Shown one piece after another: positions 34,543 through 39,042 of a DNA stretch of 64,000 bases. Under the pieces are notes generated by a model. It was not told the DNA's origin, made no database searches, and worked only from the letters and a program-made list of their open reading frames with translations. Origin of the DNA: Candidatus Brennerbacteria bacterium RIFOXYC1_FULL_41_11 (GTDB lineage: Bacteria; Patescibacteriota; Minisyncoccia; UBA6257; Brennerbacteraceae); NCBI GenBank assembly GCA_001817215.1, contig MHHX01000019.1, positions 16,302 through 80,301 on the forward strand, given 5' to 3'. The first letter of the stretch is position 1. Each line of letters starts with the position of its first letter. The position numbers were made by a program, and so were the translations under genes.

Positions 34543-35171
34543 TTTGGGAAGTGCTTCCCCTGATTTTAATATTTTTAGGGTTTGGCAGCGCCCTGATTTT
34601 TTTGGTGAAAAAATCAGAGTCAATTTCTGATGAAGAAGTAAACAAGACCCTCGATAATATCAAGTTGGTTAAGCTGATAAAGATTTTTTATCATCAAAAA
34701 ATCAAGCCGAAACTTCAATCACGCGTGATTGAAGAAAAAACCCTTCTCTTTGTTGAGAAAGAGTTGCGTTGGTTAAGGATTTTAGCCTTGAAGCTGGAAA
34801 ATTGGCTGACTAAACAAATCGACGGCGTTAAAAACTTGCGGGTTAAACCGGAAGCAGATCCGTTATACTGGCTTTCGGTCAGGCGAGATGCTTTAGAGAA
34901 GAAAATCAACGAGGTATTTCAGTTCAGTTTTAATGCCAAATACGATCCTTTTAAAGAAGAAGAGAAGTTGGTAAAGAAGGGTATCGAAGATATTAATGAA
35001 TGGTTGAAAATCGTCAAGTTTCATCTTGAAAGAGACGATATTTCAGAGGCCCGCAGGCTGATTATCCGTTGCTGGAAGATTAATCCTGACGATGAAAAAC
35101 TCAAGCTTTTGCTTGAAAGGTTTCACCTGAGTCTTGAAGAAGACCAGTTGAAAGAGGAAAAACAGAGCTAG
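34539..35171 (+). CDS. Hypothetical N-terminally anchored protein, helical/TPR-like, translationally coupled to tsf
   Basis: N-terminal TM LPLILIFLGFGSALIFLV; 4-nt overlap with the tsf stop. Confidence 0.4.
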   Translation: MIWEVLPLILIFLGFGSALIFLVKKSESISDEEVNKTLDNIKLVKLIKIFYHQKIKPKLQSRVIEEKTLLFVEKELRWLRILALKLENWLTKQIDGVKNLRVKPEADPLYWLSVRRDALEKKINEVFQFSFNAKYDPFKEEEKLVKKGIEDINEWLKIVKFHLERDDISEARRLIIRCWKINPDDEKLKLLLERFHLSLEEDQLKEEKQS

Positions 35172-35211
35172 TTTGTTATAATTCAACTCGGCTTGATATA
35201 ATAAAATGCAT

Positions 35212-35295
35212 GCTGGGATGGTAGAGCGGTCAATTACAAGAGACTGTAAATCTCTCGCCCTTAGGGCTACGCAGGTTCGAATCCTGCTCCCAGCA
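35212..35295 (+). tRNA. tRNA-Tyr (anticodon GTA) with a long variable arm
   Basis: Acceptor GCTGGGA/TCCCAGC, anticodon stem AGAGA/TCTCT with loop CUGUAAA, variable-arm hairpin GCCC-TTA-GGGC, T arm GCAGG-TTCGAAT-CCTGC. Confidence 0.8.
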
Positions 35296-35338
35296 CTCTG
35301 ACTCGCAGGGGCCTTACTCGCTCGGTGCGAGTACTAGA

Positions 35339-35406
35339 GGCCCTATCGTCTAGCCCGGTCTAGTCATGCCAGCGGCAGATCCGCCTTTGGCGGAGACATC
35401 GCCCCT
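35339..35406 (+). other. Degenerate tRNA-Glu-like 5-prime fragment (pseudo-tRNA) fused to a GC-rich hairpin
   Basis: GGCCCTATCGTCTAGCCCGGTCTAG matches the first 25 nt of the downstream tRNA-Glu (GGCGCTATCGTCTAGCCCGGTCCAG) at 22/25, but no anticodon or T arm follows; instead CCGCC-TTT-GGCGG. Confidence 0.4.
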
Positions 35407-35446
35407 TTCACCTGTCAAAATTTTAATTAAAATTGAGTTATCTCAT

Positions 35447-35521
35447 GGCGCTATCGTCTAGCCCGGTCCAGGACGCTGCCCTCTCACGGCAGAAACACGA
35501 GTTCAAATCTCGTTAGCGCTA
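35447..35521 (+). tRNA. tRNA-Glu (anticodon CTC)
   Basis: Acceptor GGCGCTA/TAGCGCT, D arm GTC-TAGCCCGGTCCAG-GAC (E. coli tRNA-Glu-like), anticodon stem CTGCC/GGCAG with loop CUCUCAC, T arm ACGAG-TTCAAAT-CTCGT. Confidence 0.8.
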
Positions 35522-35605
35522 CATGGTTAAAAATTAGGTGGGCGAGCGGCGAATCCGCCAGCTGGCGCACAAGTCCCGTTAGGGCTACTTGACAAAGAAT
35601 CAGTA

Positions 35606-35940
35606 TTTGCTATAATATAAATACAATTTATATAAAACATCCCACGGAACCTTAGGCGAAGTGGGGAAGTGGAGTCACGATCCATGATGTTGCCTCGCAA
35701 AATCGGGGACGGAAGCTGAACCGTAATTAATCCAGCAAGCGGTGTCACTGTAGATTACAACTGGCGTTTACGCTGAGCGTAGTCGAAGCGCGGAGCCGAC
35801 CAAAGAGCCATGACTTTTAATGGAGTTATGGAATGAGGATGGGACCGCGGGAGGTCTCTTTTTTTATAGTCTCTCGTTCCTTGCTTACTACTTTTGTAGT
35901 AATTGAGGAACGAGAGGTTTTTTGATTCTTCGCGGAGTGA
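35606..35940 (+). ncRNA. Candidate structured non-coding RNA of unknown family: a promoter-like TATAAT followed about 320 nt later by two tandem intrinsic terminators
   Basis: TTGCTATAAT at about 35604-35614. No ORF of 60 aa or more on this strand. Terminator hairpin CCTCTCGTTCC...GGAACGAGAGG + TTTTTT at about 35868-35935. Internal repeats of GAGCGTAG and GTAGTCGAAG. Confidence 0.3.
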
Positions 35941-36105
35941 AGAATCAACCCTGAGCGTAGGTAGCCACGCTTGGCGTGGCGTAGTCGAAGGGTGTTTACC
36001 TTTCGTAGAAGGAGGCGTTGATGAGTAAAATACATCGCGCATTTGGAGGGTCTGGCCCTCACGGTTTTCGTCGGGAAAGATTTGATCAGTCTTTCCCGAT
36101 GTGAT

Positions 36106-36180
36106 GGTCTCTGTAGCTCAATAGTAGAGCGTTGCTCTGTGAAAGCAATGGCTGGGGGTGCAAATCCCCTCAGAGACCCA
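36106..36180 (+). tRNA. tRNA-His (anticodon GTG) with an encoded G-1
   Basis: G-1 before acceptor GTCTCTG/CAGAGAC, discriminator C, D arm GCTC/GAGC, anticodon stem TTGCT/AGCAA with loop CUGUGAA, T arm GGGGG-TGCAAAT-CCCCT. Confidence 0.8.
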
Positions 36181-36305
36181 AAATGCAAACTGCTTTGCAT
36201 TTTATGGGATTTGCAAGCCGGAGTGATATTTAACTTGCGTATGGCAAGTTAAATCACGAGGCGGGATCGCGGCAAAATTTTCGGAAGAAAATTTTAGCTG
36301 TGACC

Positions 36306-36324
36306 AAATCCCCTCAGAGACCCT
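36306..36324 (+). repeat. 19-nt perfect direct repeat of the tRNA-His 3-prime end (CAAATCCCCTCAGAGACCC)
   Basis: Identical to 36160-36178; the two copies sit 146 bp apart, like attL/attR cores. Confidence 0.7.
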
Positions 36325-36519
36325 GGGCTGTGGATGTTTTATTTTTCTGCCGGCTTCGCCCCGTTTTACGGGGCTCGTCAACTTACTCCAGCGGTAAGTT
36401 GTGGCCTGTTCTCTCGCCTCGACGGCCCTTCGACTGCGCTCAGGGACCAAGCCCGTCGGGGTTCCGAGAACCAGAAAAACAAAACATCCACAAATCCTAT
36501 TAAACAAAAAATAAAAGAA

Positions 36520-37440
36520 ATGAGCTACAAAAACAAAAAATTGAAGAAGGTCAGATTTAATCAACTCAAAAGGTCGATCGGGTTGATTAAAATTGCTCTT
36601 TGGAAAAAAATCAAAGTTCTTTTGCCGAAAAGAAAGGAGACAGCCGTGTTGAAACAAACAGTTTTTCTGATGCAGGATTTGAGACTGTTGGCTGAACGAG
36701 TCAGGGAGAATAACAAGAAAATTCAAACCTGGGTTGATAAGTATATTGAGGAATGTATTTTGGTTGGTAAACCGGTACAGATCTTGACTCAGTGGTGTTT
36801 TTCGCTTGACTTTGAGGTAAGGTTGCAAAAACAAGGTGGGAAGTTTGCGCCGACAAAAACAGAGCGAGAACTGGTTTTCAAATGGTTCCCGACTGTTCTG
36901 GAGGTTTTCGAAAAGAGGAATGTGCCAATCAATTGGATTGTTACTTTCAATCGATCCTATCTCGACAGCGGCAGGCTGGAACCAGAGACAGAAAGGGCTT
37001 ATCAGGAGATGGTTCAGGGATTGTTTGATGAGGCTGGTTTATCCAGCAAGATTCTTCTTTGTAATTGGGAAGACGATGTTCTTCTGAAAAAACCGGAGCC
37101 AGATAAAAATGTTCTTGAGAATCTGGGAGAATTTTTGGTTCCAGCCGCACTCCAAATTGTTTTTAATCAACACAAGAGCTGGGCCCTGGGAGAAGCCGGG
37201 CTCAAGCAAGCAGATGAAGAACTGTGGCAGGACGTGAAGTTCCAGATTGCTTGTGAAGCTGAAGAAGGCAGGTTCCTTTGCGATTCGGAAGAATCGCCGT
37301 TGAGTGAAGGCAAGTTCATCCTGGTTCCCTTGGAAGTCGCCGAGAGGTATAATCCAACGTTCTTAATTCTTAATCCTGAATTTGAGGAAAGGATTGCTTC
37401 GTTGTTGCCGCCATATCCTTGGCGTATGACTGAAGAATAA
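36520..37440 (+). CDS. Hypothetical protein, 306 aa, no recognisable motifs
   Basis: Start trimmed to the ATG at 36520 (MSYKNKK). The ORF-track N-terminal extension runs through a GC-rich hairpin region and is unlikely to be coding. A strong terminator follows the stop. Confidence 0.5.
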   Translation: MSYKNKKLKKVRFNQLKRSIGLIKIALWKKIKVLLPKRKETAVLKQTVFLMQDLRLLAERVRENNKKIQTWVDKYIEECILVGKPVQILTQWCFSLDFEVRLQKQGGKFAPTKTERELVFKWFPTVLEVFEKRNVPINWIVTFNRSYLDSGRLEPETERAYQEMVQGLFDEAGLSSKILLCNWEDDVLLKKPEPDKNVLENLGEFLVPAALQIVFNQHKSWALGEAGLKQADEELWQDVKFQIACEAEEGRFLCDSEESPLSEGKFILVPLEVAERYNPTFLILNPEFEERIASLLPPYPWRMTEE

Positions 37441-37443
37441 TAT

Positions 37444-37537
37444 AAAAAACCGCCCAAAAGGGCGGTTTTTTACTGCCTTGAAAAAACAACGCCGGTTATT
37501 TTCTCAAGGCACGGGGGTAAGGAGGAAATCCCCCGTG
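37444..37537. terminator. Intrinsic terminator followed by two further stable hairpins
   Basis: AAAAAACCGCCC-aaaa-GGGCGGTTTTTT; then CCTTGAGAAAATAACCGGCG-type hairpin (37475-37508) and CACGGGGG-taaggaggaaat-CCCCCGTG (37510-37537). Confidence 0.7.
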
Positions 37538-37607
37538 CGCATGTAAAGAGCTGTTTTCAATTATAGCATACTTTTAGCCCTTTTCTTGGTGATATAATAC
37601 ATGAAAT

Positions 37608-37925
37608 ATGAAATACTTAATTGTCCTGGCATTTTTAATGAATTTTGTTTCCTGGGGAATGATTTTTTACTTTGTGCCCGAAGTGAACTTTCCTTTTATT
37701 GTGAAGTACAATATTTCTGCCGGTAAAGATATTTTCGGAACAAAGCTTTCGCTGTTCAGCTTGCCGGCAATGGGATTGCTAATTTTGGTGATCAATGCTA
37801 TATTGGCCCTATCATTGATTAAGATTAACAAAGAGTTGTCGACGCTCATTCTTGGAATGACGTGTTTTTTTGAAATTTTGATCGGTCTTTACGCGTGGAT
37901 AACGATATTTATCAACACTTATTAA
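37608..37925 (+). CDS. Small membrane protein (3 TM), hypothetical
   Basis: 105 aa, three hydrophobic helices. Confidence 0.4.
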   Translation: MKYLIVLAFLMNFVSWGMIFYFVPEVNFPFIVKYNISAGKDIFGTKLSLFSLPAMGLLILVINAILALSLIKINKELSTLILGMTCFFEILIGLYAWITIFINTY

Positions 37926-38019
37926 GCGGGGTCAAGGGTTGGAAAATAAAATTCTCCGCCAGGGGCGGATCCACCTCTTGAGGAAAAGTTCAAAACCAGA
38001 AAAAAGAAAAACAAAACAT

Positions 38020-38361
38020 ATGCAAAAAGCAGTTGTGAAAATTAAAGGTCATCAGTACCTAGTCTTTGAAGGACAGAAGATTAAAGTTCAGAAAATGAAA
38101 GCCGAGCCAGGCGACAAGCTGGAGTTAAAAGATATTTTCTTAGTATTTTCAGATTCCGCCGAAGGCGGATCCGTCTCTGGCGCAAAAGAGTTCAAACTGG
38201 GCAAACCAGTTGCTGAGAAATCTTCTGTCGAAGCTAAAGTTTTGCGTCAAGCGAGGAGCCGGAAGCTGACGGTTTTCAAATACGGTCCGAAAACCAGGAG
38301 AAGGGTCAAGCGGGGATTTAGAGCAGAATATACGGAAATTGAAATCACGAGCATAAAATAA
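38020..38361 (+). CDS. rplU: Ribosomal protein L21 with a short internal insertion
   Basis: MQKAVVKIKGHQYLVFEGQKIKVQK... L21 N-terminus; ATG at 38020 checked. SDSAEGGSVSGA segment overlies the GC hairpin CCGCC-GAA-GGCGG. Confidence 0.8.
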   Translation: MQKAVVKIKGHQYLVFEGQKIKVQKMKAEPGDKLELKDIFLVFSDSAEGGSVSGAKEFKLGKPVAEKSSVEAKVLRQARSRKLTVFKYGPKTRRRVKRGFRAEYTEIEITSIK

Positions 38362-38433
38362 GCTCGTGACTTCAATTTATGATTTAGTTGTTTGAGTCCT
38401 GTTCGAAATTTGTTATTTGGAGTCGGCAAAGCT

Positions 38434-39042
38434 CTATCTTCTCGAAGATAAAGCATTGCCAAGCGTGTCTTCATCAGCAAACTCGACTTCGGCGCCTCTT
38501 GGCAGACCTAAGCCGAGGCGGGTGAGTTTTAGGCTTTTAAATTGGTTAAAGATTTTTTCCAGCTCCATAACAGTCAGGTCGCCTTCAGCGGTGTGGCTCA
38601 AGGCGAGGATAATTTCTTTGAGATTTTTGTCATTTTTAATTCTTTCCAAGAGTTCTTTTAATCTGATTTCGTGGCCGTTTCTGATGGTGGGTGAAAAAAG
38701 ACCGCCCAAAACAAAATAAAGACCGTTGAATCTCTTTGTTTTTTCCAGGGTGATTAAATCGGTTTCTTTTTCCACGATAGCCAAGATTAATCGGTCTCTT
38801 TTTTCGTCGCGGCAAATTGGGCAGGTCGAGAAAATATCCTTGCCCGAGTTTGTCGAGGGATCAAAGACAAAAAAACATTTCTGACAGACCCTTACTTTTT
38901 CAGCCAAATCTTTTAATGCTTGTGAATAAGCTAAACTGTTTTTTTTTAAAAACCAAAAAGCTATTCGGTGCGCTTGACGCAAACCGATGCCCGGTACTTT
39001 TGAAAATAACTCAATAAAATTTTCTAGTGACTTTGGCAACAT
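38434..39042 (-). CDS. recR: Recombination protein RecR
   Basis: HhH N-terminus (LIELFSKVPGIGLRQAHRIAF), C4 zinc finger (CQKC...CPIC), Toprim domain. Confidence 0.9.
   Translation of the reverse strand: MLPKSLENFIELFSKVPGIGLRQAHRIAFWFLKKNSLAYSQALKDLAEKVRVCQKCFFVFDPSTNSGKDIFSTCPICRDEKRDRLILAIVEKETDLITLEKTKRFNGLYFVLGGLFSPTIRNGHEIRLKELLERIKNDKNLKEIILALSHTAEGDLTVMELEKIFNQFKSLKLTRLGLGLPRGAEVEFADEDTLGNALSSRR

Follow-up and report, generated by a model that had tools for sequence, protein, structure and literature searches.

We analyzed 64,000 nt of the genome of Candidatus Brennerbacteria bacterium RIFOXYC1_FULL_41_11, a member of the Patescibacteria (Parcubacteria-type), and refer to this whole stretch (contig MHHX01000019.1, positions 16,302 to 80,301) as the window, by which all positions below are numbered. 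Within it lie three copies of a GC-rich palindromic cassette of 30–31 nt, here called c1, c3, and c4, which occupy a tRNA-Glu gene fragment, the leader of rplU (ribosomal protein L21), and the coding sequence of rplU, respectively. We consider it probable that these three copies are members of a dispersed, non-autonomous family of mobile mini-palindromes that resemble REPs (repetitive extragenic palindromes). A first-pass annotation, made from the DNA letters by themselves, had proposed a miniature mobile or REP-like repeat able to enter an essential gene in frame, and four independent lines of evidence support that proposal: filled and empty sites, patchily distributed units in L21, near-identical copies in unrelated genes, and at least 120 loci in metagenomes.

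The recurrence of CCGCC-N3-GGCGG that had first drawn attention to the region was borne out. CCGCCNNNGGCGG has three exact matches in the window, at 35381, 37956, and 38156, where dinucleotide-preserving shuffles predict 0.01, and all three fall within 2.8 kb. An extended 17-mer, TCCGCCNNNGGCGGATC, likewise has exactly three matches, that at 35378–35394 being on the minus strand. GC-rich 5-bp hairpins with a 3-nt loop are in mild excess across the window (11 found, about 3.3 in simulations), and 3 of the 11 are members of this family. Likeness extends beyond the 13-mer, to 76% over 34 nt between c3 and c4 and to 85% over 27 nt between the reverse complement of c1 and c4, and a profile built solely from unrelated metagenome copies returned exactly c4 (E=1.1e-10), c3 (5e-8), and c1 (4.7e-7, minus strand) from the window. 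Four copies had been listed by the first-pass annotation, and three of them stand. The remaining one, c2 near 35555, is present as written (GGCGAATCCGCC, 35548–35559) but holds no CCGCC-N3-GGCGG hairpin, and the family profile is silent on it even at E<100; it is at most a badly decayed relic, of which only the 3' two-thirds resemble c4 by eye.

Chance coincidence, or an artefact of assembly or sequencing, has in its favor the small number of copies in the window and nothing else. None of 100 shuffles reached three matches, the insertions lie in frame inside single genes, and contigs of at least 10 independent assemblies agree exactly over the locus. An identical L21 protein is encoded on 24 contigs from independent assemblies, including GCA_001817235.1 and GCA_000997045.1; in the ten of these that we examined (JGI, NCBI, ENA), every strain contig covering a copy has c1, c3, or c4 unchanged. 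We regard the likelihood of coincidence or artefact as negligible.

Each copy consists of two tandem 15-nt hairpins, TCCGCC-NNN-GGCGGA, that abut at GATC; the unit has the general form TC-NNCC-NNN-GGN'N'-GA and is usually TCCGCC-NNN-GGCGGA. The repeat is thus a short palindrome, as described in the first-pass annotation, but a double hairpin of 30 nt rather than a single 13-mer, and what were taken for ATC/GA flanks are letters that do exist but really form the GATC at which a second, weaker hairpin joins on. The genome, which had been called low-GC, is only moderately so, at about 41%. Mutations that weaken hairpin 2 are carried by c3 and c4. Folded as a single strand, a cassette yields two small hairpins (c1 as single-stranded DNA, –8.5 to –9.1 kcal/mol).

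Table 1 Positions of the element copies, of the listed copy c2, and of the host features in the window.
Feature	Position	Strand	Description
tRNA-Glu 5'-half pseudogene	35339..35415	+	Host of c1; upstream of intact tRNA-Glu(CTC) 35447–35522
c1	35364..35394	–	TCCGCC-AAA-GGCGGA / TCTGCC-GCT-GGCATGA (minus-strand reading); 31 nt; subfamily with GGCATGA end
c2	35539..35569	+	Second listed copy, TGGGCGAGCGGCGAATCCGCCAGCTGGCGCA; not accepted as a member
c3	37955..37984	+	TCCGCC-AGG-GGCGGA / TCCACC-TCT-TGAGGA; 30 nt; hairpin 2 decayed
rplU (ribosomal protein L21, 113 aa)	38020..38361	+	Host of c4; Pfam PF00829 Ribosomal_L21p E=8e-26
c4	38155..38184	+	TCCGCC-GAA-GGCGGA / TCCGTC-TCT-GGCGCA; 30 nt

We scanned metagenome contigs with TCCGCCNNNGGCGGATCNNNCNCTNG (18 specified bases), and the family figures given here and below describe the matches listed. 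The consensus of 124 distinct loci is TT-TCCGCC-NNA-GGCGGA-TCNGCC-TCT-GGCN'GA-AA, with the positions left free by the search pattern conserved at 90–99%. Read from the sequence, all six frames of this consensus are free of stop codons, and its length is divisible by three. In hairpin 2, the pair 17-27 is formed by C-G (74 copies), A-T (28), T-A (12), or G-C (2), so that 116 of 124 are Watson–Crick, whereas the pairs needed by one long palindrome are broken in 33–44 of the 124. A consensus of two identical units does fold as a single 30-nt hairpin or cruciform (–15.7 kcal/mol), but the compensatory changes keep the local pairs and break the long form. We conclude that selection keeps two mini-hairpins and not one long palindrome.

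The copies are flanked by T-rich DNA on the 5' side and A-rich DNA on the 3' side (A at positions +30/+31 in 67–78% of copies). These flanks do not supply an outer stem, pairing between them being no more frequent in the 124 copies than base composition predicts. The T-rich 5' and A-rich 3' arrangement, which holds on both strands, is the reverse of an intrinsic terminator, and the family does not show the GC hairpin followed by a U tract. A scan for consensus promoters and terminators flagged only the minus-strand reading of c3 as terminator-like, and nothing in it places c3 in a defined promoter or terminator.

Filled and empty sites in tRNA-Glu and rplU

The spacer between tRNA-Tyr and tRNA-Glu holds the 5' fragment of a second tRNA-Glu, whose 3' half is missing and for which ARAGORN makes no tRNA call (35339–35415). 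Its first 25 nt are identical to the 5' end of the tRNA-Glu of L011, the nearest genome representative ('Parcubacteria group bacterium GW2011_GWB1_45_10'). The single intact tRNA-Glu of L011 reads GGCCCTATCGTCTAGCCCGGTCTAG followed directly by GACATCGCCCTCTCAC, and the window reads GGCCCTATCGTCTAGCCCGGTCTAG (25 nt), the 31 nt of c1, and then GACATCGCCC, with 25 + 10 flanking bases identical in L011. In this alignment c1 is a clean 31-nt insertion in the tRNA-Glu fragment, and the orthologous intact tRNA is its empty site. Comparison of the two sites shows no target-site duplication. The copies in L023 and L059 are identical to c1 at 29 of 31 positions. As to the host itself, the fragment has an acceptor and a D-arm that match those of the L011 ortholog exactly, the intact tRNA-Glu of the window has a different acceptor stem (GCGCTA...), and the anticodon loop of the fragment reads CTTTCAC.

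In rplU, c4 lies in frame as codons 46–55 and encodes the ten residues SAEGGSVSGA within the segment ...VFSDSAEGGSVSGAKEFK.... The first-pass annotation had read these residues as an insertion into L21, and rightly so: they are extra relative to both E. coli L21 and the closest relative, P0002, and the alignment of L21 orthologues to which it pointed finds the segment absent from L018, L011, and E. coli L21. At the empty site, L018 reads TTTTCAGAT followed by AAGAAA, and the window reads TTTTCAGAT, 30 nt, and AAAGAG, without a target-site duplication relative to L018. Copies in L122 and L132, the latter inside MurB, match c4 at 30 of 31 positions. In an AlphaFold2 model of L21 the mean predicted local distance difference test score (pLDDT) is 83.8, and values below 50 occur only at residues 48–55, in the loop between a strand at 39–43 and a short strand segment at 59–62; the insert is thus predicted to occupy a surface loop.

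Related L21 genes carry the element in other forms. L012 and L014 each have one unit (TCCGCCGAAGGCGGA, SAEGG, and TCCGCCTCTGGCGGA, SASGG), L016 has two units, and L013 has a decayed longer form. All four inserts precede an (N/D/K)(D/N/E) dipeptide two codons upstream of the position used in the window: the single units of L012 and L014 sit before AAC-GAT/GAC codons, and the dimer of the window follows TCA-GAT. Presence of the insert is patchy within both L21 subclades, a distribution that implies repeated insertion or exchange between lineages and does not fit a single inherited segment.

Between the end of the leader copy, c3, and the ATG are 35 nt. The L014 leader has an ortholog of c3, likewise 30 nt long and set between the same flanks (AAAATTC before it and AAAGTTCAAAACC after it) but decayed in a different pattern, and the leaders of L011, L018, L016, L012, and L013 have no hairpin. 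Across the c3 point the L013 leader reads CTCAAAATTC followed by AAA, plausibly an empty site.

The arrangement at rplU, with two near-identical self-complementary 17-mers 200 nt apart on one mRNA and bracketing the start codon, could also be that of a cis-acting RNA controlling the gene, whether as an L21 autoregulatory leader, as a 5' stabilizer, or by pairing between leader and coding region that masks the start codon. L014, too, has a copy in each place, and in the fold of the leader a longer stem encloses the hairpin (–29.1 kcal/mol, z=–1.8). The z-score is nonetheless unremarkable, c3 shows decay in its hairpin 2, the coding copy of L012 has no counterpart in the leader, and the leader hairpin is missing from L011, L013, L016, and L018 as well. 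The same element lies on the opposite strand in the tRNA remnant and occurs in dozens of unrelated genes. Rfam has no match to the L21 leader (RF00559) or to another family; over 35000–38500, at the gathering score and with E up to 5, it returned only tRNAs and terminator-like noise. We therefore consider regulation of rplU in cis a very unlikely explanation of c3 and c4.

A purely local origin would make the leader copy a product of partial duplication, or of gene conversion, from the rplU segment, including the KEFKL codons, and the L21 loop a hotspot of slippage indels. The 3' flanks of the two copies are indeed alike (AAAG-TTCAAAAC at c3, AAAGAGTTCAAAC at c4), several related L21 genes vary in loop length, and the three copies of the window are confined to 2.8 kb. 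We rejected derivation of the leader copy from the coding segment through the shared AAAG..TTCAAAC flank, since A-rich 3' flanks of that type are family-wide; those of L119 and L102 resemble that of c3, and the L014 leader copy has a 3' flank closer to the coding flank of the window than to its own. In addition, c1 and c4 fall into different subfamilies, each matched elsewhere, and local slippage cannot yield the same 30-mer in other phyla. A local origin, largely refuted by the metagenome family, thus retains only a slight probability.

The family in metagenomes

At least 120 metagenome contigs, with GC contents of 0.29–0.72, carry the element. The host contigs often hold additional copies (754 kb of flanking DNA contains 10 more perfect dimers), and the matches to c1 and c4, at 29–30 of 31 positions, are to different subfamilies. 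We found only 4 matches in 2.9 million viral contigs, a count on which we rejected a phage origin; 72,556 plasmids and 5,426 E. coli genomes gave none. The RecA of L025 is 88% identical to a Dehalococcoidia RecA, one copy is intergenic on a Dehalococcoidia contig, and the proteins nearest to the S8 peptidase of L124 are of Ignavibacteria/Bacteroidota. Judging from domain content together with a single RecA match and a single S8-peptidase family, the hosts appear to span at least three phyla: Patescibacteria, Chloroflexota, and a Bacteroidota/Ignavibacteria type. The S8 peptidase also provides another empty site: with the insert, P0141, it reads NYPNPF[SAKGGSASGG]NAGT, and exactly these ten residues are missing from its homologue P0142 (73% identical) and from five further proteins. 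Together, the alignments show the element to be inserted DNA at three sites with known empty counterparts, in the tRNA-Glu of L011, the L21 of L018 and L011, and the S8 peptidase P0142.

Copies are found in genes for a RecG-like helicase, TopA, AlaRS, DnaG, GatB, MurB, a NifS-type desulfurase, and three proteins with type IX secretion system (T9SS) sorting domains, and one lies in an insertion of a 23S rRNA (L102). Among the matches listed, near-identical copies occupy unrelated genes, RNA genes, and spacers of many organisms, which shows DNA that is copied among unrelated sites and organisms. We found that 57 of 126 copies lie deep in long stop-free stretches and that 41 of these 57 (72%) are in the phase S-A-x-G-G-S-A-x-G-G, for which one third would be expected; a stricter call of open reading frames (ORFs; at least 110 aa) places 58 of 126 copies (about 46%) inside genes. 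The translated phase, Ser-Ala-x-Gly-Gly-Ser-Ala-Ser-Gly-Gly, is a flexible peptide. Orientation is biased inside ORFs (45 versus 13) but not in spacers (11 versus 14), which suggests that selection acts on the peptide and not on RNA structure or insertion polarity; an orientation constraint at the RNA level was rejected on the same spacer counts. No preferred distance to flanking stops or starts was seen among the 126 copies. We conclude that coding copies have been filtered for a harmless reading phase and settle in loops. The L21 insert would be translated and nearly neutral, and the copies in the window are best taken as near-neutral passengers without a dedicated function.

Some copies, those of L138, L085, L073, L030, L027, L102, and L119, are flanked by direct repeats of 6–15 nt, as in CCAATTTCCAATTTC, element, CAATTTCCAATTTC; in L085 the repeat duplicates five glycosyltransferase codons. 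These repeats are either target duplications of variable length or products of hairpin-induced slippage.

Near-constancy of the 30-mer across GC contents of 0.29–0.72 and at least three phyla would be easier to understand with a conserved reader protein, as would be expected of a DNA signal that the host recognizes (an uptake sequence, or a nucleoid-protein or gyrase site of the kind proposed for REPs and for bacterial interspersed mosaic elements, BIMEs), spread by uptake bias and recombination and kept because it is useful. Like uptake sequences, the element also lacks stop codons and has a phase bias inside genes, and it is pseudo-symmetric with no orientation bias in spacers. Its density, however, is low, the 64-kb window having 3 copies and the 754 kb of flanking DNA about 10 additional perfect dimers, and known uptake sequences (uptake signal sequences and DNA uptake sequences, USS/DUS) occur at roughly one per kb. 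USS/DUS, moreover, arise by substitution, whereas this element originates by insertion of 15 or 30 nt. Compensatory changes preserve the hairpins and not a fixed sequence, and sister families use other stems. A host-recognized signal is therefore, in our view, improbable.

The sister family to which we refer was seen in L079 (645–7042), as TCTCCC-TTC-GGGAGA / TCTCCC-GCA-GGGAGA, with the same two-unit architecture and other stems; its four copies lie within 7 kb and adjoin one canonical copy. The element is also found embedded in larger repeats: in L086 (2550–2790) it is part of a 70-nt tandem repeat of four copies beside a tRNA-like sequence, and in L111 and L035 an outer stem, ATCACGC...GCGTGAT, closes a larger unit of several hairpins that contains it. 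Peptides of the type (FDxxQG) that goes with a second GC-rich repeat of the window, described below, occur inside host proteins of other loci, for example PFDKVQGKP in the AlaRS of L072, so other in-frame GC-rich palindromic families probably exist.

Proposed mobility and comparison with known repeats

The element encodes nothing, so its copying requires a factor acting in trans or the replication and repair machinery of the host. Since target duplications are absent or variable in length, a simple cut-and-paste transposase with a fixed stagger is unlikely. The most economical model would be a trans-acting activity on folded single strands: a hairpin-specific enzyme may handle the folded strand, as RAYT (REP-associated tyrosine transposase) or IS200/IS605-type HUH transposases handle REPs, and insertion may prefer sites at which T-rich DNA meets A-rich DNA. 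By analogy with those systems we put forward the combination of a folded single-strand substrate, a hairpin-specific enzyme, and a T-rich/A-rich target preference, and do so as a doubtful proposal.

Several observations weigh against a mobile family. No transposase family recurs among 140 neighboring ORFs (by Pfam, for which only families with at least two members were shown, all of them housekeeping), and there is no consistent target-site duplication, c1 and c4 having none and a subset of copies having 6–15 nt. The 64-kb window holds only three copies, all within 2.8 kb, and among the strain contigs compared no strain lacks c1, c3, or c4, so recent movement within the lineage is not shown. 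Finally, near-identity of a 30-mer across phyla is unusual for a REP-type element and could reflect a conserved host factor that recognizes it. We additionally considered a mobilizing gene carried between copies, and rejected it: the elements flanking folP in L043 and the two copies of L067 enclose no transposase, only housekeeping genes.

REPs and BIMEs are, like this element, short (20–40 bp), GC-rich, dispersed non-coding palindromes, often dimers, that are thought to be mobilized in trans. Intragenic REP dimers add 20–30 residues to known proteins, including those of replication and repair genes (Di Nocera et al., PMC3733652), where this element adds 10. REPs carry an unpaired GTAG or CGTC tag beside the stem (PMC3733652), which is absent from the position table of 124 element copies, and CGTC REPs have stems of 8–9 bp and loops of 4–5 nt (PMC3733652), compared to 6 bp and 3 nt here. 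Unlike REP/BIME units, the two units of this element are head-to-tail and abut at GATC. Genomes with REPs have a RAYT (Y1 HUH transposase) gene, typically with the repeats on either side of it; no RAYT was seen in the 64 kb of this genome that the window covers. REPs are also predominantly extragenic, downstream of ORFs, and their families are species-specific, whereas about 46% of the copies of this element are intragenic and essentially one sequence is found across phyla. RPEs (Rickettsia palindromic elements) share with it the in-frame insertion into unrelated housekeeping genes, translation, and compatibility with the protein fold (PMC10969869). As first reported, RPEs are about 150 bp long, have a conserved peptide, and are confined to Rickettsia, while this element, at 30 nt (10 residues) and with two mini-hairpins, is five times shorter; the shorter RPE-4 and RPE-6 correspond to CGTC-type REPs (PMC3733652).

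Mitochondrial GC clusters (yeast GC42, the double-hairpin elements (DHEs) of Allomyces, and sponge hairpin elements) are likewise GC-rich palindromes, a few tens of nucleotides long, in genomes of higher AT content. The double-hairpin architecture of the DHE, together with its insertion into coding and rRNA regions, was reportedly described by Paquin et al. in 2000, and both traits recur in this element. GC clusters are also sporadic, mobile without a known dedicated enzyme, able to merge into composites, and passed between species (PMC4478555). They differ in having putative 2-nt target duplications (PMC4478555), where this element has no regular duplication and a strong selection for reading phase, and this element lies not in mitochondrial genomes but on bacterial contigs with bacterial housekeeping genes (free-living or episymbiotic). 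In architecture and behavior the element most resembles the organellar GC clusters and double-hairpin elements, and its closest bacterial counterparts are REP/BIME and RPE.

MITEs (miniature transposable elements with inverted repeats), which are also non-autonomous and can make in-frame fusions (PMC10969869), are 70–300 bp long with terminal inverted repeats of 15–30 bp and fixed target-site duplications (PMC3733652), as opposed to 30 nt with duplications absent or variable. The element is accordingly not a typical REP and not a MITE, and it is neither rickettsial nor organellar. We found no description of it in the literature searched, in which its nucleotide and peptide strings appear only as unrelated primers and linkers and keywords led to no more than the analogues cited here. 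To judge from the matches compared, its distinguishing features are the very small size, the tandem-hairpin design, the high intragenic share, and the near-identity across at least three phyla.

In its widest form the proposal is that one stop-free double hairpin of about 30 nt has spread nearly unchanged through at least three phyla and sits in frame in essential genes. We hold this form tentatively, with the balance of our judgment slightly short of even. If it is correct, this would be the smallest known in-frame mobile element in bacteria, and the known phenomenon of intragenic REPs and RPEs would take in an element that is far smaller and has a far wider range of hosts. It would imply either a widely shared mobilizing activity on single-stranded hairpins or frequent cross-phylum transfer of short DNA in groundwater and sediment communities, and it would raise the question of which activity places copies of a 30-nt pair of hairpins at new sites in the small genomes of Patescibacteria. 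Proteins of uncultured bacteria, among them ribosomal proteins, tRNA synthetases, primase, and topoisomerase, would be peppered with a recognizable Ser/Ala/Gly insert of 10 residues, derived from selfish DNA and not from loops evolving adaptively, with effects on the alignment, phylogeny, and structure prediction of these lineages. The element would also be a simple nucleotide marker of recent insertions and of gene flow between co-occurring populations.

Other features of the locus

In the window rplU stands alone: a convergent recR follows (38020–39042), and not rpmA (L27), the usual operon partner of rplU in many bacteria. The start of rplU is directly preceded by an A-rich sequence (37994–38019) that shares AACCAGAAAAA(..)CAAAACAT with 36468–36490, where it forms the 3' arm of an inverted repeat upstream of a 306-aa ORF. 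This inverted repeat (36329–36349 / 36472–36492) is 21 nt long and 95% complementary. Within it, L005 (GCA_000997045.1) lacks about 104 nt (36330–36433). L008 has a different sequence across 36355–36548; polymorphism in 36329–36548 thus accounts for the strain-dependent length (277, 306, 368, or 417 aa) of the ORF called upstream of the 306-aa gene.

Another small insertion is polymorphic nearby. After the tRNA-His gene (36107–36179) come an AT-rich insert of 125 nt that has three hairpins (36180–36304) and then a second copy of this 3' end, and a 19-nt direct repeat, CAAATCCCCTCAGAGACCC, lies at 36161–36179 and 36305–36323. In the strain contig L010 the insert and one repeat, and nothing more, are missing, which makes this a small polymorphic insertion at the tRNA-His 3' end.

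Between the tRNA-Glu and tRNA-His genes, 35589–35865 holds an RNA-like unit of about 235 nt with a perfect TTGACA-16-TATAAT promoter (35589–35616) and a terminator (35841–35858) followed by a T run. Its 3' end (35789–35864) aligns at 91% with L011 1749–1824, and it matches no Rfam family. A second GC-rich repeat, CTGAGCG[T/C]AGTCGAAG, occurs at 35775–35791, 35953–35992, and 36426–36445 (minus strand), and also in L011 at about 1914–1935; one of its copies is split by the hairpin GCCACGC-TTG-GCGTGGC.

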